A stretch of 64,000 nt of DNA from an uncultured Gammaproteobacteria bacterium (GTDB lineage Bacteria > Pseudomonadota > Gammaproteobacteria > Arenicellales > CAJQKF01): contig CAJQKF010000039.1 of assembly GCA_905478855.1 (NCBI GenBank), positions 4,934-68,933 on the forward strand. The letters run 5' to 3'. Under the pieces are notes generated by a model. The model was given only the letters and a program-made list of their open reading frames with translations, did no database searches and had not been told where the DNA came from. Of the stretch, positions 4,963-55,687 are shown piece after piece. Positions within the stretch are counted from its first letter, which is position 1. Each line of letters opens with the position of its first letter. The translations under genes were made by a program, and so were the position numbers.

Positions 4963-4977
4963 TTTGGGAATATTCTT

Positions 4978-5637: not shown

Positions 5638-5683
5638 TAGGCCATGACACTTATTGTTTACTAAACACCAGAGTAATATATCT

Positions 5684-14528: not shown

Positions 14529-14963
14529 TCATTTATCAATAGTTTCTCTTCCTTCCCCGCCAAACATTGTTGCAAAGTAGCCGATAACTAAGCCGATAAT
14601 GGCTCCTTCAGCGGCGAACCAGAACGGGGAACTAAACAGGCCATTTTCTCCAAATACTCGCGCCATCATATCAAACATCACATCATAGGCAAAAAATACG
14701 AGTACGAAATTCATCCACGCGCCAATAAGTGGCGCGCGAAACCACCAAGGCATAGGTAGCTTTAGAATGGGATGATAGGTAAATACACCAAATACGCCGA
14801 TAATCGCCCCAACCGTAATGTACCAAAGCAAAATGCCCCAACGGGTTAGCGAAACAACCTCTGGCAGAAAATAAGGTAAACAAATAAACGCGGCCAATCC
14901 AACAACAAGGCCTAGTCCTTTCCCAATTGCAATACGTGTTATTAACGACGGATTTTTTAACAT
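14529..14963 (-). CDS. Small integral membrane protein of unknown function (about 4 TM helices)
   Basis: 144 aa with four hydrophobic stretches. I recognise no family motif. Confidence 0.45.
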   Translation of the reverse strand: MLKNPSLITRIAIGKGLGLVVGLAAFICLPYFLPEVVSLTRWGILLWYITVGAIIGVFGVFTYHPILKLPMPWWFRAPLIGAWMNFVLVFFAYDVMFDMMARVFGENGLFSSPFWFAAEGAIIGLVIGYFATMFGGEGRETIDK

Positions 14964-16044: not shown

Positions 16045-16971
16045 ATGAAAAGTACTGATAAGGAAATATTGTTAACTGCTGTGGAATGGCTTGATGGTGG
16101 CTATGATGTGGAGTTGGTTACCCTGGTAAAGGCATGGGGATCATCACCTCGACCCGTTGGAGCGATGGCGATAGTAAGACAAGATGGGCAGTTATATGGA
16201 TCGGTGTCTGGAGGTTGTATAGAAAAACAAATTACGACTACTCTGCGTAACAATGATTCCTCGAAACTGCTTCAGTATGAAATAACTGCAGCGCAGGCAC
16301 TGCGGTTTGGACTAACCTGTGGCGGTACGTTACAGTTGGTTTTCGAGAAGCTAACCGATGTAGAGTCTTTGCGCTACATTATTAAACAACTGGAGCTTCG
16401 TCAACGTGTTAGTCGCAGGGTCAATCTTGAAGGATCAGAAGTAACCATTAGTTCGGCAGATCGGAATGCAGATTTCTCGTTTGATGGTACACACCTAACC
16501 AAAGTTTTCGGACCTGTGTGGAGACTCATACTTATTGGTGCCGGAGAATTATCTCGTAGGGTTGCCGATTTGGCTTTAACTCTCGACTATGAAGTATTGG
16601 TGTGTGAGCCTCGCCAAAGTTTAAATCCTAATTGGCGGATTCCAGAGGTTTTATTCGATAATCGTTCTCCGGATGACGTGGTGAAAACGTATTGCGATGA
16701 TTCGCGTTGCATCGTTTTGGCGTTAACCCACGATCCAAACCTGGATGATCTGGCAGTGATGGAAGCATTGGAGTTGGGAGTCTTTTATGTTGGGGCACTT
16801 GGTTCAAGAAAAAATAATACACTGCGTCGTAAGCGATTGTTGGCGTTGGGTATAGACAAGACACAGGTTGCCCGGTTTCATGGTCCTGTTGGCTTGAGAA
16901 TTGGCAGCAGAACTCCAGCAGAGATTGCGGTGTCTATTATGGCAGAGCTTATTACTTTGCGAGGTGGGTAG
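16045..16971 (+). CDS. XdhC/CoxI-family molybdoenzyme maturation protein
   Basis: WGSSPRPVGAMAIV...GSVSGGCIE is the N-terminal XdhC motif. A C-terminal Rossmann-like domain (LILIGAGELS) is present. Confidence 0.85.
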   Translation: MKSTDKEILLTAVEWLDGGYDVELVTLVKAWGSSPRPVGAMAIVRQDGQLYGSVSGGCIEKQITTTLRNNDSSKLLQYEITAAQALRFGLTCGGTLQLVFEKLTDVESLRYIIKQLELRQRVSRRVNLEGSEVTISSADRNADFSFDGTHLTKVFGPVWRLILIGAGELSRRVADLALTLDYEVLVCEPRQSLNPNWRIPEVLFDNRSPDDVVKTYCDDSRCIVLALTHDPNLDDLAVMEALELGVFYVGALGSRKNNTLRRKRLLALGIDKTQVARFHGPVGLRIGSRTPAEIAVSIMAELITLRGG

Positions 16972-17018
16972 GTTGATCCTCTGGCAATAGACGAGTCATA
17001 AGATTCTAATGGTTTGAA

Positions 17019-17594
17019 ATGAAGAAGACTTGTTTGATATTAGCCGCGGGTTCCAGCACTAGATACGGAACACAAAAATTAGTGCAAAACATGCACAATG
17101 GCAAACCAATGCTATTAACCACTATCGAATGTTATCGAAAGGTGTTTAAGGATATTGTTGTTGTAATAACACCGGGTGCCTCAACTCTGAATAATTTGCT
17201 AGAAAATCAGGATGTTAGGGTTCTTGAATGCACGCAAAGCAAGTTCGGTATGGGTCATAGTATTGCCTGTGGTATTGCTGAACAGTCTGAATCAGACGCT
17301 GTTCTTATTGCGCTGGGTGATATGCCAAGAGTTAATGTCAAAACAGTTGCTAAACTATATGAGAAGCTAGGTCCAAATAGCATCATAGCGCCAGTTTTCC
17401 AAGGTGTCCGCGGAAATCCCGTAGGCTTTGGGCGTAAGTATTTTAGTGAGTTATTAAATCTGCAAGGCGATACCGGTGGCCGTGCCATTATAAATAATAA
17501 TCTCGATGATTTTGTAGAGATAGCGGTAAATGATCAGGGTGTTCTCTTAGATATTGATACTCCGGATCAATTGGAATCGGTGTTGCTTAAATAG
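17019..17594 (+). CDS. MobA-like NTP transferase, probably a molybdenum cofactor cytidylyltransferase (MocA-like)
   Basis: 191 aa. The LILAAGSSTRYG nucleotide-binding start and an ALGDMP motif are present. It lies between XdhC and a Mo-hydroxylase operon. Confidence 0.75.
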   Translation: MKKTCLILAAGSSTRYGTQKLVQNMHNGKPMLLTTIECYRKVFKDIVVVITPGASTLNNLLENQDVRVLECTQSKFGMGHSIACGIAEQSESDAVLIALGDMPRVNVKTVAKLYEKLGPNSIIAPVFQGVRGNPVGFGRKYFSELLNLQGDTGGRAIINNNLDDFVEIAVNDQGVLLDIDTPDQLESVLLK

Positions 17595-17642
17595 ATTACA
17601 ACTGATTAATGGTACGTTAAGCAGTGTTAGAAACCAGCCGGT

Positions 17643-18233
17643 TTAGTTCCTCGTCTTAAGCCCCATCGCACATATCATGTAAGTCATCTGTTGAATACTA
17701 TCTGCGCTGTGGTCAACTGGTTTGCTGAGATTGTGACGTAAGCCTACACCATCAAATGCCAGCATTATAATGTTGGCAATGGATGTAAATTCTTCCTGGT
17801 TGCCTGTTGAGCCGGTCACACTTTCGGACAGTAGTTCAGCTATTTTTTTTTCAGTCCACTGCAGTAACTTTGGATTGTAGTTATCGCTCGGAGTGGCAGT
17901 AGAAAGTGCTTGCACCAATGTAGTGGTTAAGCCATTTTTATGCTTTGGAATGTTGTTCCACAAGCCTTCTAGCAGTTTCTTCACCTTAGCTTCCGGCATA
18001 TTTTGCCTACGTACGGTTCTAACTAGGTTATAAATTTGTGCTTTAAACCATGATTCGTAAACTGCCAGTGCAATATCAAGTTTACATTGGAAGTACACAT
18101 AAATATTTGACGACGATGTACCCGCACGTTCGGCTATTCTACCGATAGTCGATTTAACATAGCCATGTTCTGCGAATTCTGCAGTAGCAGATTGTAAAAT
18201 AGCATTGTATACCGACTGTTTTTTTACACGCAC
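17643..18233 (-). CDS. TetR/AcrR family transcriptional regulator
   Basis: The N-terminal helix-turn-helix is FAEHGYVKSTIGRIAERAGTSSSNIYVYF. It is divergent from the nicX-like operon. Confidence 0.85.
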   Translation of the reverse strand: MRVKKQSVYNAILQSATAEFAEHGYVKSTIGRIAERAGTSSSNIYVYFQCKLDIALAVYESWFKAQIYNLVRTVRRQNMPEAKVKKLLEGLWNNIPKHKNGLTTTLVQALSTATPSDNYNPKLLQWTEKKIAELLSESVTGSTGNQEEFTSIANIIMLAFDGVGLRHNLSKPVDHSADSIQQMTYMICAMGLKTRN

Positions 18234-18265
18234 TCTTAAGCTGACCTATTTATCAGAGTGGCATT

Positions 18266-18286
18266 ATAACGAATATCATTCGCTAT
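18266..18286. promoter_or_regulatory. Candidate TetR operator (imperfect 21-bp palindrome)
   Basis: ATAACGAAT-ATC-ATTCGCTAT has 8 of 9 arm positions complementary. It lies in the 111-bp divergent intergenic region. Confidence 0.3.
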
Positions 18287-18344
18287 TGACGACTTGCTCT
18301 AAGCTTGTTCTAATAATCTAAAATCATATACCTTTATTGAGAAT

Positions 18345-19427
18345 TTGCGTATGGAATCATCCATTCGGTCCATGGAAGTCAATCCGGCTAAACTGACCAT
18401 GTTGTTTAAACAGCAGTTTGAGCTGTGCAATGTCAAAGCGGGAGAGACAGTTGCTATTGTCTCGGATCTTGGCACACGTCGTGAGTATATTCAGTCGGCA
18501 TTTGCAGCAGCAGATGAGATGGGCGTGGATATTTACGAAATGTGCGTTAATATGATTCCAGGTTGGACCAAGGTTGGTGTGCCTACCGTTGGCAAATGTA
18601 AGGGTACGCTTGCGGCTCTGCTTGCCAGCGATATGATTCTAATTTTCCATGTTCCATTATTTGCATCTTGGCTACGTACCGTAATGCAGGCCGGTGTGCG
18701 GGTGCAGATGGTCATTGATGCGCCGGATGATCTGGAACAACTGCAATCTCCGCCTGGGTTAAAGCAAGCCGTATTGCATGCTCATGACATTTATCATAAT
18801 ACTAAAGAGATTCATGTAACTAGCAAGGCTGGCACTGATCTGTACTATAGTCGTGGCGAGTATCCGGTTATGAGTCAGTATGGGATGGCGGACGAACCAG
18901 GACGTTTTGATCATTGGGGCGTCGGTTTGATTCATACTTTTCCAAATGAAGGCAGTAGCCATGGCACGGTAGTCATTCAGCCGGGAGATGTGATTATTTT
19001 GCCGTACTGCAGATACGTCGTCGATCCGGTTCATCTGACCATAGAAGATGGACATATCACCACTATTGAAGGCGGTTTGGATGCTGCTCTAATGCGCGAA
19101 TGGCTTGCCGATGGTGAAGAATTCGAAGGTGACCGTGATCCATATGCGATATCTCATCTTGGATGGGGTATGAACCCCCAATGTCGTTGGGATTCAATCG
19201 CTTTATTTGGCGATGCTCCAGAGAGAAGCCGAGCTGCATCCCGATGTTTTCCCGGAAATTTCCTGTTTTCAACTGGACCTAACACTCAAGGTGGTGGTAA
19301 ACGGATAACTCGTGGTCATTATGATGTGCCAATGCGTGAATGCACGATATCACTAGATGGTAATGTAGTAGTGGACGAGGGTCGTCTGGTTGATCCTAAG
19401 ATGATTGTACCCCGTGTGCGCCGCTAA
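18345..19427 (+). CDS. NicX-like 2,5-dihydroxypyridine 5,6-dioxygenase (M29 aminopeptidase-like fold). An alternative start is the ATG at 18351
   Basis: Several long segments match my recollection of Pseudomonas putida NicX: SKAGTDL, YGMADEPGRFDHW, ISHLGWGM, NFLFSTGPNTQGGGKR and GHYDVPMREC. Confidence 0.8.
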   Translation: MRMESSIRSMEVNPAKLTMLFKQQFELCNVKAGETVAIVSDLGTRREYIQSAFAAADEMGVDIYEMCVNMIPGWTKVGVPTVGKCKGTLAALLASDMILIFHVPLFASWLRTVMQAGVRVQMVIDAPDDLEQLQSPPGLKQAVLHAHDIYHNTKEIHVTSKAGTDLYYSRGEYPVMSQYGMADEPGRFDHWGVGLIHTFPNEGSSHGTVVIQPGDVIILPYCRYVVDPVHLTIEDGHITTIEGGLDAALMREWLADGEEFEGDRDPYAISHLGWGMNPQCRWDSIALFGDAPERSRAASRCFPGNFLFSTGPNTQGGGKRITRGHYDVPMRECTISLDGNVVVDEGRLVDPKMIVPRVRR

Positions 19428-19450
19428 ACTTAACTATAGTCACTAGGCCA

Positions 19451-20857
19451 ATGCACTTAAACGGTAATTTTAAAGTTAATGCGTCTCGGCAACAGGTATG
19501 GCAGAGAATAACCAATCCTGGCTTGATGGCAGCCTGCATTCCCGGATGTGAAAGTATTGAGCAGATAGATGCAGCTACTTATCAGGCTGTTGTAGCAGTT
19601 GGTGTAGGGGTGGTTAAAGCCAAGTTCAATCTTCTCGTCGAGGTTGTTGAGGAAAATCCGCCGTTCGAGGTGCTTTCCAAAACCAGTGGTCTTGAGGGTG
19701 GTCGGACCAGCACCCTGACCGCGGAAAATCGTGTTTGGTTAACAGAGTTGGATGATGGGACGCGTGTTGACTACGAATCTGAAGTCAGTATTACCGGCCG
19801 ACTTGGTAAATTTGGCCTGGGCATCATGCGTAAACACGTCGAGAAGATGAGTGCAAAATTCGCAGTTAACTTTCAGAGTGGCATTCTGGAACAAGGCAGT
19901 CCTGCTGAGTTTTCCGCTATTGACGAAAAAGTAGAGAGCGAAAATTTAGCTACAACATCCGGGCAAGCGTATGCTCAAAAGATCGAAGAAGACTCTACGA
20001 ACACATCCGTGTCAACTCAAAATGCACTTCTCTGGCCAAAAACAGTAGATGAAGCGGTTGCTGTTCTCAGCAATACTTCAGGAAGCCAACCGCTCGCTGG
20101 TGGTGCTACATTAATCGCCATGAGAAATGCAGGTCTTATCGATGTTAAACAGTATGTTAGCTTGGAACGAGTAGACGGTATTCAGGGTATCACCATCCAG
20201 CCAGATGGTTCAATTCGTATTGGTGCAATGACTCGGCATCGTGATACAGCGGCTTGTGAAAATCTCACTGGTAATTTGGTTGTTCTCCGCCAAGCTGCAG
20301 GATCTATAGCGAGTATGCCAGTGCGCAATATGGGGACTATGGGTGGTTCGCTAGCCAATGCAGATCCGGCTGCTGATTATTTGGCAGCCTTGACTTGTGT
20401 GGATGCAAGCGTGGAAATTGTCGGACCAAGCGGCACGCGTAGTATTGGCATTAATGAGTTTATTACGGATTGGTACGAGACAGTTCTCGGTCATGGAGAA
20501 ATAATTACCGCAGTTATTTTACCGCCCTCCTGTGATGGCTATTCCTCTTACCGTAAGGTAGCGCGTGTGTCGGGAGACTATGCAGTTGCAAGCTGTGCCA
20601 TATCTACTAGCGCGGAAAAAACCATTCGGATCGCTATTGGTGGTTGCGGGCCTAGTCCTATAAGACTCAAGCATGCTGAATTCTCTCTTGGTAGGGGAAA
20701 TTTTTCTGATAATGAGATTGATAGTTATTCTGGTCAATTAACCCGTCTTGCAGACCCGGTGGACGACGTACGGGGTAGTGCGGAGTATCGTCGTAATTTA
20801 ATACCACAGCTTGTCCGCGATGCTTTCGCGGGGCTTGAAAAGAACAGGGGCATATGA
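19451..20857 (+). CDS. Fusion protein: CoxG-like SRPBCC domain joined to the FAD-binding medium subunit of a Mo hydroxylase
   Basis: About aa 1-145 are CoxG-like (NASRQQVWQRITNPGLMAACIPGCES). An acidic/Ser-Thr linker follows. From about aa 195 the protein is CoxM/XdhB-like (PLAGGATLIAMRN...GTMGGSLANADPAADY...RGSAEYRRNL). Confidence 0.85.
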   Translation: MHLNGNFKVNASRQQVWQRITNPGLMAACIPGCESIEQIDAATYQAVVAVGVGVVKAKFNLLVEVVEENPPFEVLSKTSGLEGGRTSTLTAENRVWLTELDDGTRVDYESEVSITGRLGKFGLGIMRKHVEKMSAKFAVNFQSGILEQGSPAEFSAIDEKVESENLATTSGQAYAQKIEEDSTNTSVSTQNALLWPKTVDEAVAVLSNTSGSQPLAGGATLIAMRNAGLIDVKQYVSLERVDGIQGITIQPDGSIRIGAMTRHRDTAACENLTGNLVVLRQAAGSIASMPVRNMGTMGGSLANADPAADYLAALTCVDASVEIVGPSGTRSIGINEFITDWYETVLGHGEIITAVILPPSCDGYSSYRKVARVSGDYAVASCAISTSAEKTIRIAIGGCGPSPIRLKHAEFSLGRGNFSDNEIDSYSGQLTRLADPVDDVRGSAEYRRNLIPQLVRDAFAGLEKNRGI

Positions 20858-21333
20858 TGGGCGAGAAGGCAATGATGTCGATCAATGTTAATAATAGATC
20901 CCAAGCACTCGAAACCGATGGCCATGACACGCTCTTGACAGTGCTTCGGGACGAATTAGGTATTACCAGTCCGAAAAGAGGTTGTAACCAGGGCGTATGC
21001 GGGTCGTGTACCGTAATGATTGACGGTACGCCACAACGCTCTTGTATTACCCTGTCTGCATCTTGTGAAAATAAGCAAGTACATACACTGGATTTTTATA
21101 AAGACGATCCTACTATGCAGGCATTACAAAATCAGTTCTATAACTGTGGAGCCGTGCAATGTGGGTTTTGCACAGCGGGTCTGCTGATTTCTGCTTATGC
21201 ACTGTTGAAAGACAATCCTGCTCCGAATCTTAAGGATGTGCAAAACGCGCTATCCGGGAATATTTGTCGGTGCACCGGGTATCGTAAAATTGTCGACGGT
21301 GTGATCGCAGCGTCGAAGGAATTATCATCATGA
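20854..21333 (+). CDS. (2Fe-2S)-binding small subunit of the Mo hydroxylase
   Basis: It carries the GCNQGVCGSCTV and CGFCTAG...CRCTGY cluster motifs. It overlaps the neighbouring genes by 4 bp at each end. Confidence 0.9.
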   Translation: MMGEKAMMSINVNNRSQALETDGHDTLLTVLRDELGITSPKRGCNQGVCGSCTVMIDGTPQRSCITLSASCENKQVHTLDFYKDDPTMQALQNQFYNCGAVQCGFCTAGLLISAYALLKDNPAPNLKDVQNALSGNICRCTGYRKIVDGVIAASKELSS

Positions 21334-23672
21334 GTAATACGGTTTCGAATACGCATGGGTTGGGTGTTGTTGGAAAATCTGTACCGAAGTTGGAGAACCG
21401 GGAAAAGGTGCTCGGTAAGGCTGAATATATTGCTGATATTTACCCGCCGCATATGGTTCATGGTGCGCTCCTGGCAAGTCCCCACGCTCATGCGCTTATT
21501 CTTGGATACGACGTAACTGAAGCGTTGGCAGCACCAGGTGTTGTCGCTGTACTGACCGGAGATGATGTTGGTGAAGGCCGTATGGGTGCGTTTATAAAGG
21601 ATGAACATGCCATTGCCAAACATCGTGTTAGATATGTTGGCGAGCCGGTGGCTGCGGTAGCGGCTGAGACAGAGCAACAGGCTCGCAAGGCAGCAGATTT
21701 AATCCGTATAGAGTACCAGACATTGGCGCCGGTATTAACGCCAGAGCAGGGTTTGGCGGCTGATGCACCGATCATACATCCGGATCTGGAAAGTTATTTT
21801 AAAGTATTTGATGCAGGCTCTGAGGCTAATCTTGCCTCACGCACTGTGTTTGATGAGGGTGATGTTGCCAGTGCATGGGAGCATTGTGACGTGATCGTTG
21901 AGGGTGAATTTACCACTCAGGCCCAAGCTCATGTATCCATAGAACCTTGTGGTGCCGTGGCACACATGGATGGTAATGGACGAATCAAATTGTGGTCTGC
22001 CAATCAATCGGTATTTCGGGTGCAGGCGAATGTTTGTGAGTCATTGGAATTGCCAATGTCTAGATTGCAATCCCTAACCCCACGTATCGGTGCGGGTTTT
22101 GGTAATAAAATGGAGCCCCACATACAACCTATCACGGTTGCTCTGGCAATGAAGTGTGGTCGTCCGGTAAAACTGATATTAAGCCGTGAAGAAGATTTCG
22201 AAATGGTGCGTGCTCGTCATCCTTATCGTATTCGTATGAAGACTGGCGCGAAGAAAGATGGAACTCTAGTTGCTCGTTCGTGTGAGGTTTTACTCGACTG
22301 CGGTGCCTATGTTGATGATAGCCCGGGTGTGCTGGGTTTTAGCCTGCTGATGGCCCGTGGCCCTTACAACATCCCCAATATGCACTCTGAAGGGAAATTG
22401 GTATACACCAATAAAATTCGTTTTGGTGCGTTTCGTGGATTCGGTAATCCTCAGGTTACTTTTGCTGGTGAACAACAGATAGACGAGATAGCACGGCAAT
22501 TGGAAATTGATCCTATCGATCTTCGCCGAAAGAATATTCTTAGTGAGGGCGATCCATGGTTTCTTGGGCAAAAGGTAGAGTCCGCCGGATTGGCACAATG
22601 TATTGATGCCGTTGAGAAAGCCAGTGAGTGGCGTGATCAAATCCGTTCGACTAAAACTCAAATTCCGGGTCGTCGAACCGGAATCGGCATGGCGATTACT
22701 GCACATATCTCCGGGTTGCTGTCTTCAGCCGCTATTGTAAGAATACTTGAGGACGGTTGTGTTGCTCTGAATACGGGTGCGGTTGATATCGGTCAGGGCT
22801 CTGACACAGTGTTAGCGCAAATATGTGCTGAAACCTTAAAGGTCGATTTAAAAAGTGTTTCAGTAGCAAGCCCGGATACGGATGGATCGCCCTATAATTG
22901 GGGTACCACTGCAAGTCGAGTGACTTACATGACCGGTCGGGCGGTAAAAAGCGCTGCAGAAAAAGCCGCAATTAAGATAAAGCAGCATGCTGCCGAGATG
23001 TTTGACTGTAATATTGAAGACGTTGAGCTTCGCGACGGCGGCGTGGTTGGCATTATAGGAACTGATAAAGTTTTGCCGTTTCTCGCCATCTCTGCACGAG
23101 CTCACTGGGCAGTAGGTGGGCCGATTATCGGTGAACATTCACTTGCATTTGAACGGGATACTTTGGATCCTAAGCGAGCCGTAGCTTTAGGTTTACCCTT
23201 TCCACGTATCGGGGTATTAAGTTTTGGGGCGTTGGTCGTCGAGGTCGAGGTGGATGAAGTGACCGGGCAGACGCGAATTCTAAAAGCTTGGTCCGCACTG
23301 GATGTAGGACGTGCGATTAATCCGCAACTGGTTGAAGTTCAGATTGAGGGCGCATTTGTGCAAGGCCTTGGTTATGCATTGTTTGAGGAGATGGTGTGGG
23401 ACGGTGGGAGACTTTCCAATCCGACACTGATGGATTACAAAGTGCCGACTATTGCCGATGTTCCGTACGACATCGAATCTATCATTATAGAATCACCTGA
23501 ACCCGATGGCCCCTATGGTGCGAAGGGTGCTGGTGAAATTGGGATTAATGCAGTGCCTGCGGCTATTGCGAATGCAGTTTTTGATGCCACCAGCTATCGA
23601 CATCGGCATTTGCCAATGACTTCTGAGCGGGTCTTTAACGGTCTTTACAACAGCCAACGAAAATATCAATGA
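21330..23672 (+). CDS. Molybdopterin-binding large subunit, xanthine dehydrogenase/aldehyde oxidase family
   Basis: 780 aa with GAFRGFGNPQVTFAGEQ and GQGSDTVLAQI motifs. The FRGFG motif is XDH-type, not a CO-dehydrogenase active-site loop. Confidence 0.9.
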   Translation: MSNTVSNTHGLGVVGKSVPKLENREKVLGKAEYIADIYPPHMVHGALLASPHAHALILGYDVTEALAAPGVVAVLTGDDVGEGRMGAFIKDEHAIAKHRVRYVGEPVAAVAAETEQQARKAADLIRIEYQTLAPVLTPEQGLAADAPIIHPDLESYFKVFDAGSEANLASRTVFDEGDVASAWEHCDVIVEGEFTTQAQAHVSIEPCGAVAHMDGNGRIKLWSANQSVFRVQANVCESLELPMSRLQSLTPRIGAGFGNKMEPHIQPITVALAMKCGRPVKLILSREEDFEMVRARHPYRIRMKTGAKKDGTLVARSCEVLLDCGAYVDDSPGVLGFSLLMARGPYNIPNMHSEGKLVYTNKIRFGAFRGFGNPQVTFAGEQQIDEIARQLEIDPIDLRRKNILSEGDPWFLGQKVESAGLAQCIDAVEKASEWRDQIRSTKTQIPGRRTGIGMAITAHISGLLSSAAIVRILEDGCVALNTGAVDIGQGSDTVLAQICAETLKVDLKSVSVASPDTDGSPYNWGTTASRVTYMTGRAVKSAAEKAAIKIKQHAAEMFDCNIEDVELRDGGVVGIIGTDKVLPFLAISARAHWAVGGPIIGEHSLAFERDTLDPKRAVALGLPFPRIGVLSFGALVVEVEVDEVTGQTRILKAWSALDVGRAINPQLVEVQIEGAFVQGLGYALFEEMVWDGGRLSNPTLMDYKVPTIADVPYDIESIIIESPEPDGPYGAKGAGEIGINAVPAAIANAVFDATSYRHRHLPMTSERVFNGLYNSQRKYQ

Positions 23673-24499
23673 ACATTGACGATTATCCTGAACAGGAGCC
23701 GTTTACAAAAATCGGCACTCTCTATCACGAAAAAGTTACCGCTATGGCCGGACATGTTGTTGGTCATGAGCTTTGTTACGGAGATGATCCCTATCAATCG
23801 TTGCTAATTTATCCAGCACAGAACCCAAACGGTAATGTTTTGTGTTTTATGCACGGCGGTGGTTGGACCAATGGCTATAAAGAATGGATGAGCTTTATGG
23901 CACCCGCTTTGAATCGTGTTGGTTGCACGTTTGTTAGTGTTGGATATCGACTGGCGCCGATACATTTGTATCCAGCAGGATTTGACGACTGTTGTGCCGC
24001 AATTGCACGGGTTTATCGGAGGATTGCGGAATTTGGTGGTGATCCGAATCGAATTTTTGTAGGAGGGCATTCTGCAGGAGGGCATTATGCCTCTTTACTG
24101 GGTTTGTGTCTGGCATGGGGAACTAAGGAATCGTTACCAGAAAATATCATTAAGGGAGTACTGCCGGTATCGGGAACATTTGAATTTGGAGAAAACTCTG
24201 GCTTGTCTATGCGACCCCGATTTCTGGGTGGTGAAGAACTTGGCAATGACGGCACTGCGTCACCCATCAACTACATACGGGCCGGGGCGCCACCGTTTTT
24301 GATATCCTATGGTGAGAATGATTTTCCGCATCTTATACGTCAGGCCGAGAGATTTACTGATACATTGCGTTTACAGGGTGTATCAGTAACTACTCAGCAG
24401 TTGGATGATTGTGATCACTTGGGTGCAAGTTATGCCTGTGGCGAGATAGATGGAACTTGGGTAAAAGCCGCAGAAGACTTTATGCAGAAAGTCTCCTGA
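23669..24499 (+). CDS. Alpha/beta hydrolase, arylformamidase-like (candidate N-formylmaleamate deformylase)
   Basis: It has HGGGW and GHSAGGH motifs. Its start overlaps the large-subunit stop (ATGA). The deformylase role is inferred from context only. Confidence 0.7.
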   Translation: MNIDDYPEQEPFTKIGTLYHEKVTAMAGHVVGHELCYGDDPYQSLLIYPAQNPNGNVLCFMHGGGWTNGYKEWMSFMAPALNRVGCTFVSVGYRLAPIHLYPAGFDDCCAAIARVYRRIAEFGGDPNRIFVGGHSAGGHYASLLGLCLAWGTKESLPENIIKGVLPVSGTFEFGENSGLSMRPRFLGGEELGNDGTASPINYIRAGAPPFLISYGENDFPHLIRQAERFTDTLRLQGVSVTTQQLDDCDHLGASYACGEIDGTWVKAAEDFMQKVS

Positions 24500-24612
24500 G
24501 GGAAATTTATTGATCGTCGAGATATACCTTCCGGATCGACGCTAACCCAACAATAATGCCATAGCAGTTTAACTACACGAATTGTTTTTATAATAATTAG
24601 GAGAAGTACAAG

Positions 24613-25776
24613 ATGAAAAAAATTGTTTCACTATTTACGTTGCTAGTAAGCGCATTTGGCGTTTTTGCAGCACAAGCTGCGGATCCGGTGCGTATCGGTT
24701 ATTCCATTGCCAATACGGGGCTGTTTGCGCAAGCGGCCCCTTCTCAGGTAACAGCCTATGAGCTATGGGCTAAGCAAGTAAACGATGCCGGTGGACTTGA
24801 TGTTGCGGGTGAACGTCGTCCGGTGGAGCTTGTTTGGTACGACGACGAATCGGATCCTGCCAAATCAGCGCAAATCTATGAGAAACTTATTTCTGACGAT
24901 AACGTTGATCTTTTGTTGGCTCCTTGGGGCACACCGCATCACCTGAATGTTGCAGGTGTAGTGGAGCGTCATGGCTTTCCAATGATAGGAAATACGGCGG
25001 CATCAGTTGCGGTTAGGGAAGTTCAGCCTGGCAATATCTGGTTTCCTACATCGGCGATTCCAGATCGAATCGGCGTGGAGTTGGCAGCTATGGCTGCTAA
25101 AGCTGGCGTGACGTCAGTCGCGATCATCGCCAATGTGTTGCCATTTTCCCAAGAAAACTTGCAGTTTTTAGTTCCTGCTTTGGAATCTGTAGGTATCGAG
25201 GTTGCGCTTAACGAAAGTTATCCGCCTGATATTTCCGATATGACCGGTTTATTAACGCAGATTAAGGCGGCAAATGTTGACGGTGTAATAGCACTTTCTT
25301 ATCCAGCTGATTCTTTTCTGTATATGGGACAATCTCAGGAAATCGGAATCGATGCGCCATTTCAATTTCTTTTAGTAGGCCCAACTATTTCTGCATTTTC
25401 TCAGGCTTTCGGGGAGCTAGCTGATGGCGTGGTTACGCTGGGTCACTGGAGTCCACATCAGGCTAATTGGAGTCGCGCTAAACCGTTTTTTGATGCGTAT
25501 GTAGAGGCTTATGACATGAAGCCGGATTATTTGGATACTGCATTGGCTTATATGTCATGTGAAATTTTGCAACAGGCCGTTGCTAAAGCTGGCTTAGATC
25601 ATGACAAACTACGTTCGGCTATATCTTCATCTACCTTCGATACTATAAATGGCGACGTAAAGTTTGATGGTGTTGAGAACTCTATTACCCCAACGGCATT
25701 TCTTCAGCTGCAAGGTGGCGACATGCATTTAGTGTGGCCTGAGAATATCGCTACCGCAGCCTATAAAGCGCGCTAA
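24613..25776 (+). CDS. Liv-type (branched-chain amino acid/amide family) ABC transporter substrate-binding protein
   Basis: 387 aa with a signal peptide. The PVRIGYSIANTGLFA start is typical of Peripla_BP_6 proteins. Confidence 0.8.
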   Translation: MKKIVSLFTLLVSAFGVFAAQAADPVRIGYSIANTGLFAQAAPSQVTAYELWAKQVNDAGGLDVAGERRPVELVWYDDESDPAKSAQIYEKLISDDNVDLLLAPWGTPHHLNVAGVVERHGFPMIGNTAASVAVREVQPGNIWFPTSAIPDRIGVELAAMAAKAGVTSVAIIANVLPFSQENLQFLVPALESVGIEVALNESYPPDISDMTGLLTQIKAANVDGVIALSYPADSFLYMGQSQEIGIDAPFQFLLVGPTISAFSQAFGELADGVVTLGHWSPHQANWSRAKPFFDAYVEAYDMKPDYLDTALAYMSCEILQQAVAKAGLDHDKLRSAISSSTFDTINGDVKFDGVENSITPTAFLQLQGGDMHLVWPENIATAAYKAR

Positions 25777-25871
25777 GTTTCCTCTACCCTTTAACTGGAA
25801 TACGTTTTGATCTGCTTGTTCAACTCAAATGTATTCCGGTTTATCCATCAGCAACTTGTAATTATGACGAA

Positions 25872-26765
25872 GTGCTGATGGATCTTCTGCTTTCTCCCCA
25901 GTTATTATTTTCGGCTTTAGTATTAGGTTCTACCTATGCTTTGGTGGCTCTTGGGTTGAATCTTGTTTATGGCACTATGCGCCTATTGAATATTGCACAT
26001 GGTGATTTAATAATGGTGGGCGCCTATGCGGCATTCTGGTTTTTTACATTAAGCGGGTTGTCACCGATTATCGGTTTGCCCTTAATTGCACTAATTTGCG
26101 CAGGTCTCGGCCTCATCCTCTATTTTGCTATCTTCCGTCATCAACTTGAAAATGTTCATCCCGTTGAACGGATTGAGGCCAACTCATTACTACTTTTTTT
26201 TGCCGTTTCGGTCATTGTGCAGAATGTTGTGGCATTATCATTTAGCGGATCACCACGTGCGTATCGTCATTTGGACGAGGTATATCATTTGTTAGGTGTA
26301 TCGATGACTGCCAATAGAATTGCTGCTTTGGTGGTCGCCGTAACACTACTATCTGCTGTAGTGTTATTTTTAAATCGAAGTCACTATGGTTTATCTATTT
26401 CTGCTTTAATTCAAAATAAGACAGCCGCCAAGATAGTTGGTATCAATGTTTCAAAAATACAAATTTTAAGCTTCACTATTGGTTTTGCTATAGCAGGTGT
26501 TGCTGGTGCATTAATAAGTATGACTGAGCAGATTTCGCCGTTTATGGGATTTCCGTTCACAATTGTCGCCTTTGTAGTCATAATTTTAGGCGGGCTGGGC
26601 AATATTAAAGGCGGAATCGCTGCTGGTCTGTTGCTTGGTTTCGTAGAGATTTATGTTGTTGTGCTTACGTCGGCAAATTTTCGCTCTATCTTAATCTACG
26701 GATTATTTGTTGGTGTGTTGTTATTACGACCCCAAGGACTGTTCGGAAAAACCAGAGCTTCCTGA
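25872..26765 (+). CDS. Branched-chain-type ABC transporter permease (LivH-like)
   Basis: 297 aa. The N-terminus (LGSTYALVALGLNLVYG) and C-terminus (PQGLFG) are typical of LivH. Confidence 0.85.
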   Translation: MLMDLLLSPQLLFSALVLGSTYALVALGLNLVYGTMRLLNIAHGDLIMVGAYAAFWFFTLSGLSPIIGLPLIALICAGLGLILYFAIFRHQLENVHPVERIEANSLLLFFAVSVIVQNVVALSFSGSPRAYRHLDEVYHLLGVSMTANRIAALVVAVTLLSAVVLFLNRSHYGLSISALIQNKTAAKIVGINVSKIQILSFTIGFAIAGVAGALISMTEQISPFMGFPFTIVAFVVIILGGLGNIKGGIAAGLLLGFVEIYVVVLTSANFRSILIYGLFVGVLLLRPQGLFGKTRAS

Positions 26766-26766
26766 A

Positions 26767-27696
26767 ATGACAGCACTTAATGGCATTTTAAAAGATCGTG
26801 TTTTACTTATCTTTTTAACATCTTTAGTACTAACGGTTTTTGTCCCAGACTTGTTTGGATCGTACTGGGCTATTGTTGCCTTGAATTTAATGATGTGGGT
26901 TTCCCTTACCCAGAGCTGGACATTGTTTTCAGGTATGACGGGTTATATCTCACTCGGTCATGTGGTTTTTTATGGCATTGGTGCGTACGTAGTGGCTTCA
27001 ACATTCAAAGTGTTGCCGTTGTGGGTTTCGATTCCGCTGGGTGGAGTCGTAGCCGGGGTTCTAGCTTTGCTAGTGGCGATACCGGTTTTGCGTGTGAGAG
27101 GGCCTTACTTTGTTATTCTCACATTCGGACTAGCAGAGCTGGTTAAATATATAGTTTTAAATGTAGAGACATCAATAGGAAAATCGAGTCGATTATTATT
27201 TGGAGCCCCTACTATTGAAACGTTGCTCTATATCATGATTGGACTCGCGGTAATTGCAACCCTTATGACCAAATTGGTAAGTCAATCACGTTTTGGTCGA
27301 GGACTCAGCGCAATTCGAGATGATGAAATAACGGCTGAAACCGTTGGCGTACCCGTTGTGAAATATAAAATAACAGCGTTTACTCTTTCTGCTGTAATAC
27401 CGGGCATGGTGGGTGGTGTTATAGCGCTAAAATCGACTTATTTTGAAGTCCTACAAGTGTTCAATCCGGTAATTTCGTTTACTGTAGTGACCATGGCGAT
27501 TATTGGCGGCAGTGGTGATGTGCGTGGGCCATTCATGGGTGCGGCGTTTTTGTTGTTATTGTCCGAATTGTTCTGGGCTACTATTCCTCAGATTTATATG
27601 ATTCTTGTTGGTTTATTTTTGATCGTTTTCGTTGTGTTCGCACCAAATGGCATTGCTGCAATATTATGGCCAGCACGATCAAGAGACTCTCAATGA
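26767..27696 (+). CDS. Branched-chain-type ABC transporter permease (LivM-like)
   Basis: It carries the LivM motif GYISLGHVVFYGIGAY. I prefer the ATG at 26767 over the listed ORF start at 26707, which overlaps livH by 59 nt. Confidence 0.85.
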   Translation: MTALNGILKDRVLLIFLTSLVLTVFVPDLFGSYWAIVALNLMMWVSLTQSWTLFSGMTGYISLGHVVFYGIGAYVVASTFKVLPLWVSIPLGGVVAGVLALLVAIPVLRVRGPYFVILTFGLAELVKYIVLNVETSIGKSSRLLFGAPTIETLLYIMIGLAVIATLMTKLVSQSRFGRGLSAIRDDEITAETVGVPVVKYKITAFTLSAVIPGMVGGVIALKSTYFEVLQVFNPVISFTVVTMAIIGGSGDVRGPFMGAAFLLLLSELFWATIPQIYMILVGLFLIVFVVFAPNGIAAILWPARSRDSQ

Positions 27697-28424
27697 ATCT
27701 GTTGGAAGTTGAAAATATCGGCAAGAACTTCGGCGGTGTTCGGGCGCTTGACGAAGTTAGTCTTATGGTTGACAAAGCGGAAACGTTGGGTTTGATGGGT
27801 GCTAATGGTGCCGGCAAGACAACCCTATTCAGCGTTATTGCCGGCCACTTAAAGCCAAGTAACGGTATCATCCGGCTAAAGGGAAAAACCATAACCGGCT
27901 ATCGACCGGATAAAGTGTGTCGTTTGGGCATTGCTAGAACCTTTCAGATTGTGCGACCCTTTATTGGGATGAGCGTAAGAGAGAATGTAGAGGTAGCTAT
28001 TCTATTCGGTAATTCTGGATATGATTCTGCATCATCCTTAGGGGATCGTGCCATGGATATCCTAGATGATGTTGGTTTACAGGGATTGTCGGAAACTTTC
28101 GCAGGTAAACTTACCCTTTCCGCACGTAAATGTCTTGAAGTAGCTCGTGCTCTGGCCACTGGGCCTGAGATATTGTTGTTGGACGAGGTTATGGCTGGTC
28201 TGACACCTCGAGAAGTGGATGACATGATTGAGATTATTCAGCGGATTAAGTTGCAACGTCGATTAACCATCGTTATTGTCGAACATGTCGTAAAGGCGTT
28301 AAATCAGCTTTCTGAACGTGTAGTAGTCCTGCATCACGGCAAGATTATTGCCACCGGCTCACCACAAGAAATTGCTCAGAATATTGATGTTCGTGAGGCT
28401 TATTTTGGAGCCTCCGATACATGA
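27693..28424 (+). CDS. ABC transporter ATP-binding protein (LivG-like)
   Basis: It has a Walker A (GANGAGKTT) and an LLLDEVMAGL Walker B. The ATG at 27693 forms an ATGA overlap with the livM stop. The listed ORF begins at 27666. Confidence 0.85.
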   Translation: MNLLEVENIGKNFGGVRALDEVSLMVDKAETLGLMGANGAGKTTLFSVIAGHLKPSNGIIRLKGKTITGYRPDKVCRLGIARTFQIVRPFIGMSVRENVEVAILFGNSGYDSASSLGDRAMDILDDVGLQGLSETFAGKLTLSARKCLEVARALATGPEILLLDEVMAGLTPREVDDMIEIIQRIKLQRRLTIVIVEHVVKALNQLSERVVVLHHGKIIATGSPQEIAQNIDVREAYFGASDT

Positions 28425-29143
28425 GCGATATTCTAAGCGTACACAAGGTAGAGTCTGGGTATGGTGAAGTGGGTGTATTGCACGGCATGGATTTACAATG
28501 CAGGACAAGCAAAGTCACAGCTTTAGTGGGCTCTAATGGGGCTGGAAAATCAACGTTAATGCGCACCATTGCAGGGCTTTTGCCAAATACCAAAGGGAGT
28601 ATTCATTTTGACGGGGAAGTCATTGATAAATTGCCTTCTCATGCACGAGTAGAAAAAGGTTTAATCATGGTTCCCGAAGGACGATTGGTATTTTCTGACC
28701 TTACGGTTGCAGATAATTTGCGCACCGGTTCGGTGAACGTGAGAGCTCGGGAGCATTGGCAGTCAACGATCACCGAGGTTTATGATCTGTTCCCCCGTTT
28801 ATACGAACGTCAGCGTCAACTGGCCGGCTCCTTATCAGGTGGTGAGCAACAAATGTTGGCATTGGGCAGGGGCTTAATGGGTTTGCCGAAGATGCTTTTA
28901 CTCGATGAGCCAACATTAGGACTAGCGCCCGCAATAGCAAAGCAGATATTTAAAGTCATGCCAGCATTGGTAGAGCGTGGAATATCAATATTTCTGGCTG
29001 AGCAAGATCTTTACCGAACTCTGGAAATTGCCGATTACGCTTTTGTAGTCGAAAATGGAAAGATTATTATGCATGATACCGGTAAAGTTTTAAAAAACGA
29101 CCCTAAGATTACTAACGCATATCTAGGGGATAGTAAGTCGTAA
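28421..29143 (+). CDS. ABC transporter ATP-binding protein (LivF-like)
   Basis: It has Walker A (GSNGAGKST), an LSGGEQQMLA signature and LLLDEPTLGLAP. Confidence 0.9.
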   Translation: MSDILSVHKVESGYGEVGVLHGMDLQCRTSKVTALVGSNGAGKSTLMRTIAGLLPNTKGSIHFDGEVIDKLPSHARVEKGLIMVPEGRLVFSDLTVADNLRTGSVNVRAREHWQSTITEVYDLFPRLYERQRQLAGSLSGGEQQMLALGRGLMGLPKMLLLDEPTLGLAPAIAKQIFKVMPALVERGISIFLAEQDLYRTLEIADYAFVVENGKIIMHDTGKVLKNDPKITNAYLGDSKS

Positions 29144-29200: not shown

Positions 29201-30376
29201 GTGAAAATACTCAAGTTCACAACGGGACTTTTATTGCTGGTTGCCATATCAGGCGTCGGTTGGCTCGTTTATGAACGGCTTAAAGAGCCAAATGGCCCGC
29301 AGAAAAAACGAAACTCCATATCGTTAATAGCTGCCGTTGAAGTTGCACCTGCAACAATACAGTCGATCCAACTCTTGCGACAATTTACCGGTACCCTGGA
29401 TTCAAAATCCGAATTCGTGGTGGCGCCTAAAGTGGCTGGGCGGATAGAAGAAATTTCGGTAGATTTAGGTGATACTGTTGAGCGGAGTGAGGTTGTGGTT
29501 CGGCTTGATAATGCAGAATATACACAGTCTTTGAAACTGTATCAGGCAGATCTGGCCGTTATCCGTGCGAATCTTGCCGAGGCTAAGAGTCAGCTCGAAA
29601 TTGCTAAGCGAGAGCTCGAACGAATCACCACTCTGCAGCAACGTGGCGTCAGTTCAGCCGCAGAAAACGATGCTGCTCGTGCAACTTATTCAGCTCGAAC
29701 CGCTCATGTTGAAGTGGCTAGAGCGCAAATACTTCGGGCACAAGCAGAGTTGGAAACCGCGCGAATTCGTCTGGGTTACAGTGAGGTGAGGGCGAATTGG
29801 AGGGGGGGGCGTAATTTTCGTGCGGTAGCTGAACGTTATGTAGACGAAGGGGAGACCGTTACGGCTAATCAGCCGTTATTGCGAATTGTTGATCTGGACC
29901 AACTAAACGGCGTGTTATCGGTTACTGAACGGGATTATGGCCAGTTACAGGTGGGACAAATTGTTATTCTGGATGTTGACGCATTTCCCGACGAAAAATT
30001 TAATGGACGTATTTCACGAGTATCACCGGTATTTGACGAAGCGACACGACAAGCTCGGGTCGAGGTAACTGTTGAGAACAAGGATCATCGGTTAAAGCCC
30101 GGTATGTTTATTCGGGCCAACGTAGAGCTTGAGGCCTCTGCTTCAGCGGTTACTGTACCAGAGCAAGCTTTAGTTACGCGAAATAATGAGTCTGGGGTGT
30201 TTGTGTTGAATGATGATGGTGTAACTGTGCAATGGAAACCGGTTCAACCAGGTATTCTGCAAAATGGACGGGTTCAACTTATTGATGGGAGTATTGATGG
30301 CTTGGTTGTAGTGTTGGGGCAGCAATTGCTTGATGATGGTAGTGCGGTCAATGTGGTAGGTGGAGAGCGACAATGA
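29201..30376 (+). CDS. RND efflux periplasmic adaptor subunit (MFP)
   Basis: 391 aa with an N-terminal anchor, a coiled-coil hairpin (LAEAKSQLEIAKRELERI...) and beta-barrel motifs. Its end overlaps the RND pump start. Confidence 0.85.
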   Translation: MKILKFTTGLLLLVAISGVGWLVYERLKEPNGPQKKRNSISLIAAVEVAPATIQSIQLLRQFTGTLDSKSEFVVAPKVAGRIEEISVDLGDTVERSEVVVRLDNAEYTQSLKLYQADLAVIRANLAEAKSQLEIAKRELERITTLQQRGVSSAAENDAARATYSARTAHVEVARAQILRAQAELETARIRLGYSEVRANWRGGRNFRAVAERYVDEGETVTANQPLLRIVDLDQLNGVLSVTERDYGQLQVGQIVILDVDAFPDEKFNGRISRVSPVFDEATRQARVEVTVENKDHRLKPGMFIRANVELEASASAVTVPEQALVTRNNESGVFVLNDDGVTVQWKPVQPGILQNGRVQLIDGSIDGLVVVLGQQLLDDGSAVNVVGGERQ

Positions 30377-33450: not shown

Positions 33451-33521
33451 GAGTGATTTTGACTTATAAACTCTGAATGGCTTATTCTTTTTAGTGCTAT
33501 CAAATTATAAATCCATTCAGA

Positions 33522-36084: not shown

Positions 36085-36096
36085 ACTTTTTTTCTC

Positions 36097-38514: not shown

Positions 38515-38518
38515 GAGT

Positions 38519-50402: not shown

Positions 50403-50474
50403 GTTGTTCTCGGCTTTTCGTTTACTTTCTGCTCGATGAATATGAGCTTAGAAGCTGGTCTGTTGGTTTATTAA

Positions 50475-53976: not shown

Positions 53977-53996
53977 GCATAATGGATTAGGTTCAA

Positions 53997-55672: not shown

Positions 55673-55687
55673 ACCCAGGAAATCATA

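Follow-up and report, generated by a model that had tools for sequence, protein, structure and literature searches.

A conserved gene unit with a NicX-family dioxygenase, a molybdenum hydroxylase and a Liv-type importer: a putative N-heterocycle ring-cleavage operon

Results

Gene content and layout of the locus

We analysed a 64,000-nt stretch of DNA from an uncultured gammaproteobacterium (contig CAJQKF010000039.1 of assembly GCA_905478855.1; hereafter the window), and in particular a plus-strand gene block at 18345-24499 that encodes a relative of the ring-cleavage dioxygenase NicX. An original prediction, made from the sequence alone, had described this block as part of an incomplete NicX-type catabolic island for N-heteroaromatic compounds, consisting of the NicX-like protein, a molybdenum (Mo) hydroxylase of the xanthine dehydrogenase (XDH) family and a formamidase-like hydrolase, accompanied by cofactor maturation genes, a divergent TetR gene and an ATP-binding cassette (ABC) importer of the Liv/HAAT type. 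The coordinates of all these genes were reproduced in the open reading frame (ORF) list of the window, as were the gap of 23 nt that follows the block's first gene, the three subsequent 4-nt overlaps and the 113 nt separating the hydrolase gene from that of the binding protein. The five ABC genes (24613-29143) are collinear with the block, in agreement with the proposal that the importer is dedicated to the unit. Domains were assigned with Pfam and NCBIfam, together with the precomputed assignment PF26233 (NicX); the Pfam scan covered about 70 ORFs, which are nearly all those of at least 120 aa in the window. The features of the locus are:

16045-16971, + strand: XdhC-family Mo cofactor insertion chaperone, 308 aa (PF02625, PF13478)
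17019-17594, + strand: MocA-like Mo cofactor cytidylyltransferase, 191 aa (PF12804)
17643-18233, - strand: divergent TetR-family regulator, 196 aa (PF00440, TetR_N)
18267-18285, no strand: candidate TetR operator palindrome TAACGAATATCATTCGCTA, in the TetR/NicX divergent promoter region
18351-19427, + strand: NicX-family Fe(II) dioxygenase, 358 aa (PF26233, PDB 7CN3 match)
19451-20857, + strand: medium subunit, SRPBCC/CoxG fused to a flavin adenine dinucleotide (FAD) domain, 468 aa (PF06240, PF00941, PF03450)
20854-21333, + strand: small subunit, two [2Fe-2S] clusters, 159 aa (PF00111, PF01799)
21330-23672, + strand: large molybdopterin-binding subunit, 780 aa (PF01315, PF02738, PF20256)
23669-24499, + strand: HSL-family alpha/beta hydrolase, 276 aa (PF07859)
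24613-25776, + strand: HAAT/Liv-type periplasmic binding protein, 387 aa (PF13458, Peripla_BP_6)
25878-26765, + strand: ABC permease 1, 295 aa (PF02653, as called in locus L001)
26767-27696, + strand: ABC permease 2, 309 aa (PF02653, as called in locus L001)
27693-28424, + strand: ABC ATPase 1, 243 aa (PF00005, PF12399)
28421-29143, + strand: ABC ATPase 2, 240 aa (PF00005)

The NicX-like protein belongs to a deep-branching clade of predicted dioxygenases

The ORF of the NicX-like gene opens at 18345. Translation almost certainly begins with the ATG at 18351 and yields a protein of 358 aa, since metagenome gene calls use this ATG and the N-terminus is conserved from that methionine onwards. The protein matched Pseudomonas putida NicX (PDB 7CN3) over its full length (residues 10-352, E=7.7e-64). 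This was its only real match in the PDB, the other, low-scoring ones being antibody Fab chains. M29 peptidases were absent among the PDB matches at E<=1, and neither Peptidase_M29 nor any other local Pfam model matched the protein even at E<=10. With a full-length match to NicX and none to the M29 family, the M29 aminopeptidase reading, which the original prediction had named as one that would refute its claim, was rejected. The iron ligands of NicX are His265, Ser302, His318 and Asp320 (PMC7910607), and all four have aligned counterparts in the window protein (H269, S307, H323 and D325) that are invariant in its clade; the loss of metal ligands, also raised at that stage, has thus not occurred.

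NicX contacts its substrate through Leu104, His105, Glu177 and His189 (PMC7910607). Leu104 and His189 are retained in the window protein, as is Arg293 of NicX; His105 is replaced by Phe, Glu177 by Gln and Glu308 by Gln, and these three replacements are invariant within the clade. Phe or Tyr at position 105 and Gln at position 177 are common across the family, close relatives of NicX included, and the H105F mutant of NicX remains active (PMC7910607). We dropped residues 105 and 177 as a substrate signature because both variants occur family-wide.

The clade to which the window protein belongs shows about 35% identity to NicX and about 50% to the nearest other clades, and its orthologs are 73-93% identical across alpha-, beta- and gammaproteobacteria. 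The whole family comprises about 160 clusters at 50% identity, nearly all of them uncharacterised; the characterised members all act on 2,5-dihydroxypyridine (PMC7910607). Judged by its sequence, the protein is a true NicX-family dioxygenase, of a separate and deep-branching clade.

The same architecture might, however, serve another chemistry, with the clade cleaving a different ring (for example a hydroxylated diazine or a substituted dihydroxypyridine that the Mo enzyme would form from a common natural heterocycle). We consider this, the main rival explanation, somewhat unlikely. The depth of the branch, the unusually strong conservation within the clade across three classes, its three invariant replacements and the large number of uncharacterised clusters would all be consistent with a different ring, while the single substrate shared by the characterised members and the wide occurrence of Phe105 and Gln177 speak against it. 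Further evidence on both sides comes from the variant loci described below.

NicX-family proteins with about 33% identity to the window protein occur on many plasmids of Rhizobium, Agrobacterium, Pseudosulfitobacter, Roseomonas and Paracoccus. They are annotated as leucyl aminopeptidase, a name that is probably wrong, and would represent additional NicX clades yet to be characterised.

A three-subunit molybdenum hydroxylase of its own lineage

To judge from its motifs, the Mo enzyme is an intact three-subunit hydroxylase of the XDH family. The medium subunit consists of an SRPBCC/CoxG domain (residues 5-143), an acidic, Ser/Thr linker and an FAD domain (residues 193-459) in which the motifs AGGATL and TMGGS are present. 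The gene of the small subunit overlaps its neighbours by 4 nt on each side. The large subunit contains the hammerhead domain and both domains that bind the Mo cofactor (MoCo), with the motifs GAGFGNK, FRGFG and GAGE, the last of which carries the catalytic Glu. Together with the locus comparison presented below, these cofactor and catalytic motifs bear out the original reading of an XDH-family Mo hydroxylase: the enzyme is intact, and its conserved neighbour is NicX.

The enzyme could not be given any of the names on offer. Against the NCBIfam equivalogs for xanthine dehydrogenase, 4-hydroxybenzoyl-CoA reductase, CO dehydrogenase and aldehyde oxidoreductase, the large subunit fell below every cut-off (563 vs. 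995 bits for HcrA and 533 vs. 780 bits for XdhA). Its best PDB match was HcrA, the alpha subunit of 4-hydroxybenzoyl-CoA reductase (1RM6_A, 8e-114, 384 bits), followed by quinoline oxidoreductase (Qor, 272 bits) and 6-hydroxypseudooxynicotine dehydrogenase (Kdh, 265 bits), both at about 1e-78. The split nicotinate dehydrogenase of E. barkeri gave 245 + 160 bits, a sum about equal to the best single match. The FAD subunit is closest to CutM-type flavoproteins; it matched the beta subunit of 4-hydroxybenzoyl-CoA reductase with 99.6 bits in two stretches (cut-off 404.55) and 1RM6_B with 59.8 bits. An identity with 4-hydroxybenzoyl-CoA reductase was accordingly rejected, as the scores fell far short of the cut-offs for the equivalogs and the match of the FAD subunit to the beta subunit was weak and partial.

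The XdhC and MocA-like genes lie 1.4-2.3 kb upstream. The best NCBIfam matches of XdhC were XdhC-type maturation factors, below their cut-offs, and that of the MocA-like protein was TIGR03310 (MocA/YgfJ; 133 bits, cut-off 186). A cytosine dinucleotide form of the cofactor is predicted because a MocA-like cytidylyltransferase is present. The original claim that the unit has cofactor maturation genes of its own holds for the window, where genes of both types adjoin the block, but the adjacency is specific to the lineage: in the genome scan described below, a MocA homolog was found upstream at two loci only (L010, 67% identity; L016, 34%), and XdhC beside the cluster at no other locus.

The alpha/beta hydrolase

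The hydrolase is of the Abhydrolase_3/HSL type (PF07859, 93.9 bits; PF12697 below cut-off). Its motifs HGGGW and GHSAG and the triad Ser135/Asp218/His250 are invariant or nearly so in the orthologs, which the pipelines of the Joint Genome Institute (JGI) and NCBI name arylformamidase. HGGxW and GxSxG motifs typify arylformamidases. A fold search with the AlphaFold2 (AF2) model of the protein (predicted local distance difference test score, pLDDT, 92.5) returned generic HSL esterases only and did not single out formamidases. The formamidase-like label given in the original prediction is therefore upheld by the motifs and the pipeline names and not by the fold search.

Compared with the eukaryote-type kynurenine formamidase/arylformamidase, the hydrolase is alike in its HGGxW oxyanion motif, its GxSxG nucleophile motif and its Ser-Asp-His triad. 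It differs in having no direct sequence or fold match to a solved structure of that enzyme, the best folds being those of the generic HSL esterases, and its context suggests an N-formyl amide derived from ring cleavage and not N-formylkynurenine. By family assignment it is not an ortholog of NicD, whose type is Abhydrolase_1/6, and would be functionally analogous at best. The hydrolase always accompanies the window-type NicX clade and stands directly next to the NicX gene where the Mo genes are absent. We infer that it is a deformylase of N-formylamides, with N-formylmaleamate as the predicted substrate.

The unit is collinear in three classes of Proteobacteria

We scanned genomes, one per species, for relatives of the NicX-like protein and compared the best 80 of the 145 stretches that encode one, at 70-93% identity. 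The full set was defined as NicX, SRPBCC, FAD, FeS, Mo, hydrolase, binding protein, two permeases and two ATPases. It is present and collinear in 46 of the 56 genomes with enough flanking DNA, in alpha-, beta- and gammaproteobacteria. At 49 of the 60 loci with enough sequence, the gene for the Mo large subunit is found 2-4.5 kb downstream of NicX, between NicX and the hydrolase gene. This conservation of gene order is far beyond chance. Annotated loci of Variovorax and Pacificispira have this set of eleven genes, SRPBCC being encoded on its own; the fusion of SRPBCC to the FAD domain seen in the window occurs at 8 of 61 loci, the genes being separate elsewhere. The binding protein, which has distant relatives only in the PDB, is 53-82% identical in the orthologous clusters. 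When flanking ORFs within 10 kb were clustered over the 80 loci, no further recurrent genes appeared beyond antisense ORF artefacts in high-GC genomes.

Among the carriers are Variovorax, Rubrivivax, Comamonas, Hydrogenophaga and Burkholderiales of the Limnohabitans type, Rhodospirillales including Pacificispira, roseobacters (Planktomarina, Aestuariivita and Ruegeria lacuscaerulensis) and gammaproteobacterial metagenome-assembled genomes (MAGs). The idea of a specifically marine pathway has to be abandoned, since most orthologous clusters are found in soil and freshwater Burkholderiales and in Alphaproteobacteria. The window DNA is also present in coastal marine metagenomes, for example at the SOLA station.

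With alphaproteobacterial copies, the NicX-like protein of the window shares 86-87% identity and the binding protein about 80%. The housekeeping protein Tex, which is 99-100% identical within the window's own population, reaches only 77% with its closest relatives outside it, MAGs labelled Gammaproteobacteria or Ca. Azotimanducaceae, and 64% with Porticoccaceae. As the NicX-like protein is closer to alphaproteobacterial copies than Tex is to its gammaproteobacterial counterparts, these identities clearly point to horizontal exchange of the unit among alpha-, beta- and gammaproteobacteria. The plasmids in PLSDB contained no NicX of the window clade and no relative of the large subunit above 37% identity. 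Our literature searches, marine contexts included, found no description of this unit.

The short gene set is a stable design with variants

The original prediction had found no homolog of the flavin monooxygenase NicC, the maleamate amidase NicF or the maleate isomerase NicE in the window, and the Pfam scan agrees: among the approximately 70 ORFs it detected neither FAD_binding_3 monooxygenases nor isochorismatases nor isomerases of the Asp/Glu-racemase type. None was found either in the approximately 6 kb and 3 kb beyond the two window ends, and none recurs within 10 kb at the 80 loci. The description as an incomplete island is correct in that the rest of the nic pathway is missing, but not if it is taken to mean decay: the short gene set is collinear in 46 of the 56 genomes and NicC, NicF and NicE are absent throughout the neighbourhoods, which argues for a stable design and not a decayed nic cluster. 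The absence of NicF and NicE from every neighbourhood would also be consistent with cleavage of a different ring, in which case the two enzymes would never be needed because the products of the hydrolase would enter central metabolism directly.

At 8 of 60 loci the Mo genes are missing and the hydrolase gene directly follows NicX; the carriers are Alcaligenaceae (Pusillimonas among them), some Burkholderiales, some sphingomonads and a Steroidobacteraceae MAG. The TetR gene and an orthologous ABC system are kept at two of the eight loci (L069 and L086), with binding proteins 62-67% identical to those of Mo-containing Comamonadaceae clusters. Other enzymes are found near the Mo-less pairs: L066 and L069 have a VanA-like Rieske oxygenase, L064 has an intradiol dioxygenase and a bicupin, and at L043 a PicC-family Amidohydro_2 protein is accompanied by a TonB receptor and an M20 peptidase. 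NicX and hydrolase adjacent to each other without Mo genes, and with varied funnel-type enzymes nearby, suggest a lower module fed by interchangeable upper enzymes. This pattern is expected for a central intermediate such as 2,5-dihydroxypyridine. In particular, the PicC-family decarboxylase-type protein paired with the clade at L043 would yield 2,5-dihydroxypyridine, which argues against a different ring.

The Mo-less loci also bear on a second rival explanation, namely that the Mo enzyme acts after cleavage, oxidising a formyl or aldehyde group of the product, and that the imported compound is itself the substrate of NicX. NicX is the first gene of the operon, L069 and L086 keep TetR, NicX, hydrolase and ABC genes without the Mo enzyme, and the XDH family includes aldehyde oxidoreductases, all of which would fit. 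We nevertheless regard this order of events as very improbable. It would make a deformylase-type hydrolase redundant, yet the hydrolase is always present; 2,5-dihydroxypyridine autoxidises readily, with pigment formation on record, and is an unlikely environmental substrate; and we know of no precedent for the oxidation of N-formyl amides by the XDH family.

A different variation was seen in Aquibium sp. A9E412 (L090), where NMT1/THI5-type binding proteins replace the Liv-type system and an amidase-signature enzyme is added. The added amidase suggests that an amide product must be dealt with, and the exchanged binding proteins are a point in favour of a ring other than 2,5-dihydroxypyridine. 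At the same locus, the gene directly after that of the Mo large subunit encodes a CoxG/SRPBCC domain fused to an ABC ATPase (L090:15684-16994) and is followed by genes for a permease and an NMT1-type binding protein. This fusion hints at a physical link, through SRPBCC, between the hydroxylase and the membrane or transporter.

At L056 (6402-8938) and three related Comamonas-type loci, genes for formate-tetrahydrofolate (THF) ligase, 5-formyl-THF cyclo-ligase and the glycine dehydrogenase GcvP lie immediately upstream of TetR. This adjacency might weakly reflect the release of formate, or be a coincidence, the four loci being related and not independent.

A candidate TetR operator is conserved upstream of NicX

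A divergent TetR gene lies 100-600 nt upstream of NicX at 49 of 73 loci. The TetR/NicX intergenic region of the window contains a near-perfect palindrome at 18267-18285, TAACGAATATCATTCGCTA, and the conserved palindromic pattern across loci is TAACGAAT-N3-ATTCGCTA. The core CGAAT-N3-ATTCG was found with at most one mismatch within 260 nt upstream of NicX at 40 of 78 loci, in all three classes (8 with no mismatch and a further 32 with exactly one). The background of one-mismatch sites is 0.02 per kb, so that about 0.4 would be expected against the 40 observed. The conservation of this site upstream of NicX ties the TetR gene to the operon and makes the palindrome at 18267-18285 a strong candidate for the TetR operator.

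In Pacificispira (L008), the genes just upstream of TetR encode an ABC system of the SBP_bac_1 type and a 722-aa protein (L008:6655-8823) whose C-terminal domain is that of the large subunit of N,N-dimethylformamidase (PF20254).

Comparison with characterised pyridine pathways

The known system closest in logic is the 3hpd cluster of Ensifer adhaerens HP1, in which a one-step hydroxylation to 2,5-dihydroxypyridine is followed by ring cleavage. Its HpdA is a Mo dehydrogenase of four components, including a separate SRPBCC protein, that converts 3-hydroxypyridine stoichiometrically to 2,5-dihydroxypyridine (10.1101/2020.01.08.898148); the original prediction was thus right that a multi-component 3-hydroxypyridine dehydrogenase with an SRPBCC component has been described. 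The cluster comprises HpdA1A2A3A4 and HpdBCDE, a GntR regulator and a full maleamate pathway, and a phosphoenolpyruvate (PEP)-utilising protein and a pyruvate-phosphate-dikinase-like protein (orf9, orf10) are required for activity (10.1101/2020.01.08.898148). In both systems a deformylase and a NicX-type dioxygenase go together with Mo, 2Fe-2S, FAD and SRPBCC modules of an XDH-family hydroxylase, and both have an ABC transporter nearby.

The differences are nonetheless considerable. The gene order is SRPBCC-FAD-FeS-Mo here and Mo(A1)-FeS(A2)-SRPBCC(A3)-FAD(A4) in 3hpd; the regulator is TetR here and GntR there; and SRPBCC, which is fused to FAD in the window and in only part of its relatives, is separate in 3hpd. 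The amidase (hpdD) and isomerase (hpdE) are in the 3hpd cluster and not in that of the window, and the orf9/orf10 pair is absent from the window and from the annotated orthologous neighbourhoods. HpdA was reported to be closest to Ndh and Qor enzymes (10.1101/2020.01.08.898148), whereas the large subunit studied here, in a comparison with HpdA made by its description only, resembles HcrA and XdhA more than Qor and Kdh. Identity with the 3hpd cluster was rejected on its architecture, that is on gene order, regulator and PEP-utilising genes. Pusillimonas caeni carries a 3hpd cluster with its own hpdBCD on one contig and a window-type NicX on another, indicating that the two systems are distinct. 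The presence of the window clade besides a canonical hpdBCD set would also suit cleavage of a different ring. However, Alcaligenes faecalis JQ135 already has paralogous 2,5-dihydroxypyridine dioxygenases, the picD product and the dioxygenase of its hpa cluster, which weakens this point. The hpa cluster, for 5-hydroxypicolinate, is listed among the routes through 2,5-dihydroxypyridine (10.1101/530550).

With the nic cluster of P. putida KT2440, to which the original prediction had compared it, the unit shares cleavage by a NicX-family enzyme with identical Fe ligands, a subsequent hydrolytic deformylation and a hydroxylase upstream in the pathway. The hydroxylase here is a predicted three-subunit, FAD-containing enzyme of the XDH type with SRPBCC, whereas nic uses NicAB. 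NicAB is a two-component, cytochrome-c-containing hydroxylase. In addition, nic has NicC, NicF and NicE, none of which is present here, and a NicD-type hydrolase where the unit has an HSL-type one; uptake here is by an ABC importer. Control of nicotinate hydroxylase by a TetR-type regulator, NicS, is known in P. putida.

The pic pathway of A. faecalis JQ135 likewise starts with a three-component Mo dehydrogenase with SRPBCC, and its 2,5-dihydroxypyridine is cleaved and deformylated; the maleate isomerase gene, picG, is encoded far from the cluster (10.1101/530550). The window unit lacks the Rieske protein PicB, the decarboxylase PicC and PicF. Because PicB and PicC are absent, 6-hydroxypicolinate could not be turned into 2,5-dihydroxypyridine with the genes of this unit.

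These two systems suggest a third rival explanation, in which the unit covers only part of the breakdown of nicotinate or picolinate: 6-hydroxynicotinate or 6-hydroxypicolinate would be the product of the Mo enzyme, and NicC, or PicB and PicC, would be encoded elsewhere. The summed scores of the E. barkeri nicotinate dehydrogenase, the SRPBCC domain of PicA-type enzymes (10.1101/530550) and the precedent of NicS are consistent with such a fragment. Yet the 46 genomes with the full set have it without a NicC-, PicB- or PicC-type gene within 10 kb, no such gene is found in the 64-kb window either, and the Mo genes lie between NicX and hydrolase in a single translationally coupled block, which argues that the steps encoded together are consecutive ones. 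We therefore consider a pathway fragment of this kind improbable.

Catabolism of homarine (N-methylpicolinate) was also considered and rejected, since the hom operon has no Mo enzyme and no NicX; it encodes the flavin-type HomAB, a peptidase-like protein and an aldehyde dehydrogenase (PMC13236597).

Proposed pathway

We think it likely that the unit is an N-heterocycle ring-cleavage operon of this general kind, and propose the following scheme, which we give an even chance of being right as it stands: import of a hydroxypyridine, Mo hydroxylation, cleavage by NicX and deformylation, with all substrates and products predicted from the gene content. The TetR repressor would bind the palindrome at 18267-18285 until the substrate or an intermediate releases it. 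Import of a hydroxypyridine-type N-heterocycle would fall to the five-component HAAT/Liv-type ABC system, given its strict collinearity. XdhC and MocA would load the Mo hydroxylase with a cytosine-dinucleotide cofactor, and this enzyme would add a water-derived hydroxyl to the ring carbon next to the nitrogen, passing the electrons toward the membrane. The simplest one-step route to a NicX substrate would then be 3-hydroxypyridine to 2,5-dihydroxypyridine, the former being the only simple one-step precursor; for 3-hydroxypyridine itself we put the odds at less than even. The Fe(II) dioxygenase of the NicX clade would open the ring to N-formylmaleamate, which the arylformamidase-like hydrolase, as its obligate pairing with NicX and its motifs suggest, would split into maleamate and formate. 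Maleamate would be handled by enzymes that are encoded elsewhere or are non-orthologous, for which the Aquibium amidase and the distant picG of Alcaligenes are precedents.

Several points weigh against this scheme. Two of the substrate-contact residues of NicX are changed (His105 to Phe and Glu177 to Gln), and none of the proteins of the unit has a characterised ortholog that would tie it to a substrate. The characterised HpdA depends on two PEP-utilising proteins, which this unit lacks, and gene order and regulator differ; moreover, the large subunit is probably not an HpdA ortholog, as HcrA, XdhA-type enzymes and the E. barkeri nicotinate dehydrogenase outscore Qor and Kdh. The imported compound may not be the substrate of the Mo enzyme, since Mo-less Pusillimonas clusters keep the ABC and TetR genes. 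NicF and NicE, which would act on maleamate and maleate, are lacking in all neighbourhoods, and the fold search with the hydrolase model did not favour formamidases. Finally, to our knowledge 3-hydroxypyridine has not been reported as a naturally abundant metabolite in aquatic settings.

A more far-reaching possibility, which we judge unlikely, is that the unit represents a widespread and unstudied route for a common natural N-heterocycle other than the known precursors of 2,5-dihydroxypyridine, bypassing maleamate amidase and isomerase. If so, it would mean a new NicX clade and a new SRPBCC-linked lineage of Mo hydroxylases, with products passing straight into central metabolism.

Returning to the hydroxypyridine scheme, this widely distributed, horizontally mobile and uncharacterised unit would be a short form of the hydroxypyridine/maleamate upper pathway. 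Its architecture will not surprise a specialist; the breadth of its conservation across dozens of genomes is the more noteworthy part. Catabolism of pyridine rings has been worked out mostly in soil isolates growing on pollutants or nicotine, and here it would take the form of a compact, regulated and transporter-linked unit. A high-affinity ABC importer and tight conservation imply a substrate that is natural, dilute and recurrent. Once found, this substrate would define a sink for dissolved organic nitrogen heterocycles and give a function to a deep NicX clade, a distinct lineage of Mo hydroxylases and a non-orthologous deformylase. The predicted TetR operator and the cultured carriers (Variovorax spp., Ruegeria lacuscaerulensis and Aquibium) make the question directly testable.

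Other genes in the window

A scan of the window at Rfam gathering thresholds found zero RNA families and no known riboswitch, a tRNA scan found none, and the composition of the window shows no sharp island boundary. Downstream of the unit, at 29201-34403, are genes for a resistance-nodulation-division (RND) efflux pair, made up of a 1025-aa ACR_tran pump and a membrane fusion protein, and for a double SnoaL-like protein of 290 aa. The RND pair begins 57 nt after the ABC genes on the same strand. The pair and the SnoaL gene were rejected as members of the operon because they co-occur with it only in the window's own population.

At 1016-2832, a gene for a beta-keto acid cleavage enzyme (BKACE) is followed by one for a second Abhydrolase_3 hydrolase. 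A longer contig shows further genes upstream of BKACE, whose products are an aldehyde dehydrogenase, a thioesterase, a GMC oxidoreductase and a protein resembling FAD amine oxidases; the region has the look of a small catabolic cluster of its own. In Pusillimonas sp. T2 (L064), too, BKACE is encoded 2 kb downstream of the NicX-hydrolase pair. The region at 53032-60329, which encodes a polar amino-acid-type ABC transporter, then a 796-aa dimethylglycine/sarcosine-dehydrogenase-like protein (DAO-FAO_M-GCV_T) and a 2-oxoglutarate (2OG)-Fe(II) oxygenase, is probably a catabolic unit for methylated amines or betaine-type compounds.

Surface-glycan genes are scattered over the window (3619-8351, 35167-40344, 50004-51134 and 63120-63800). 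They encode a flippase, glycosyltransferases of the GT1, GT2 and GT4 families, two C-methyltransferases, an epimerase/dehydratase, nucleotidyltransferases, a hexapeptide acyltransferase and a CMP-sugar-type cytidylyltransferase, with NeuB encoded just past the window end. Three minus-strand ORFs gave no Pfam match: 360-929 (189 aa), 4978-5637 (219 aa) and 14529-14963 (144 aa). The last of these is membrane-protein-like and adjoins, in all metagenome copies, a histidine-phosphatase gene just upstream of XdhC.

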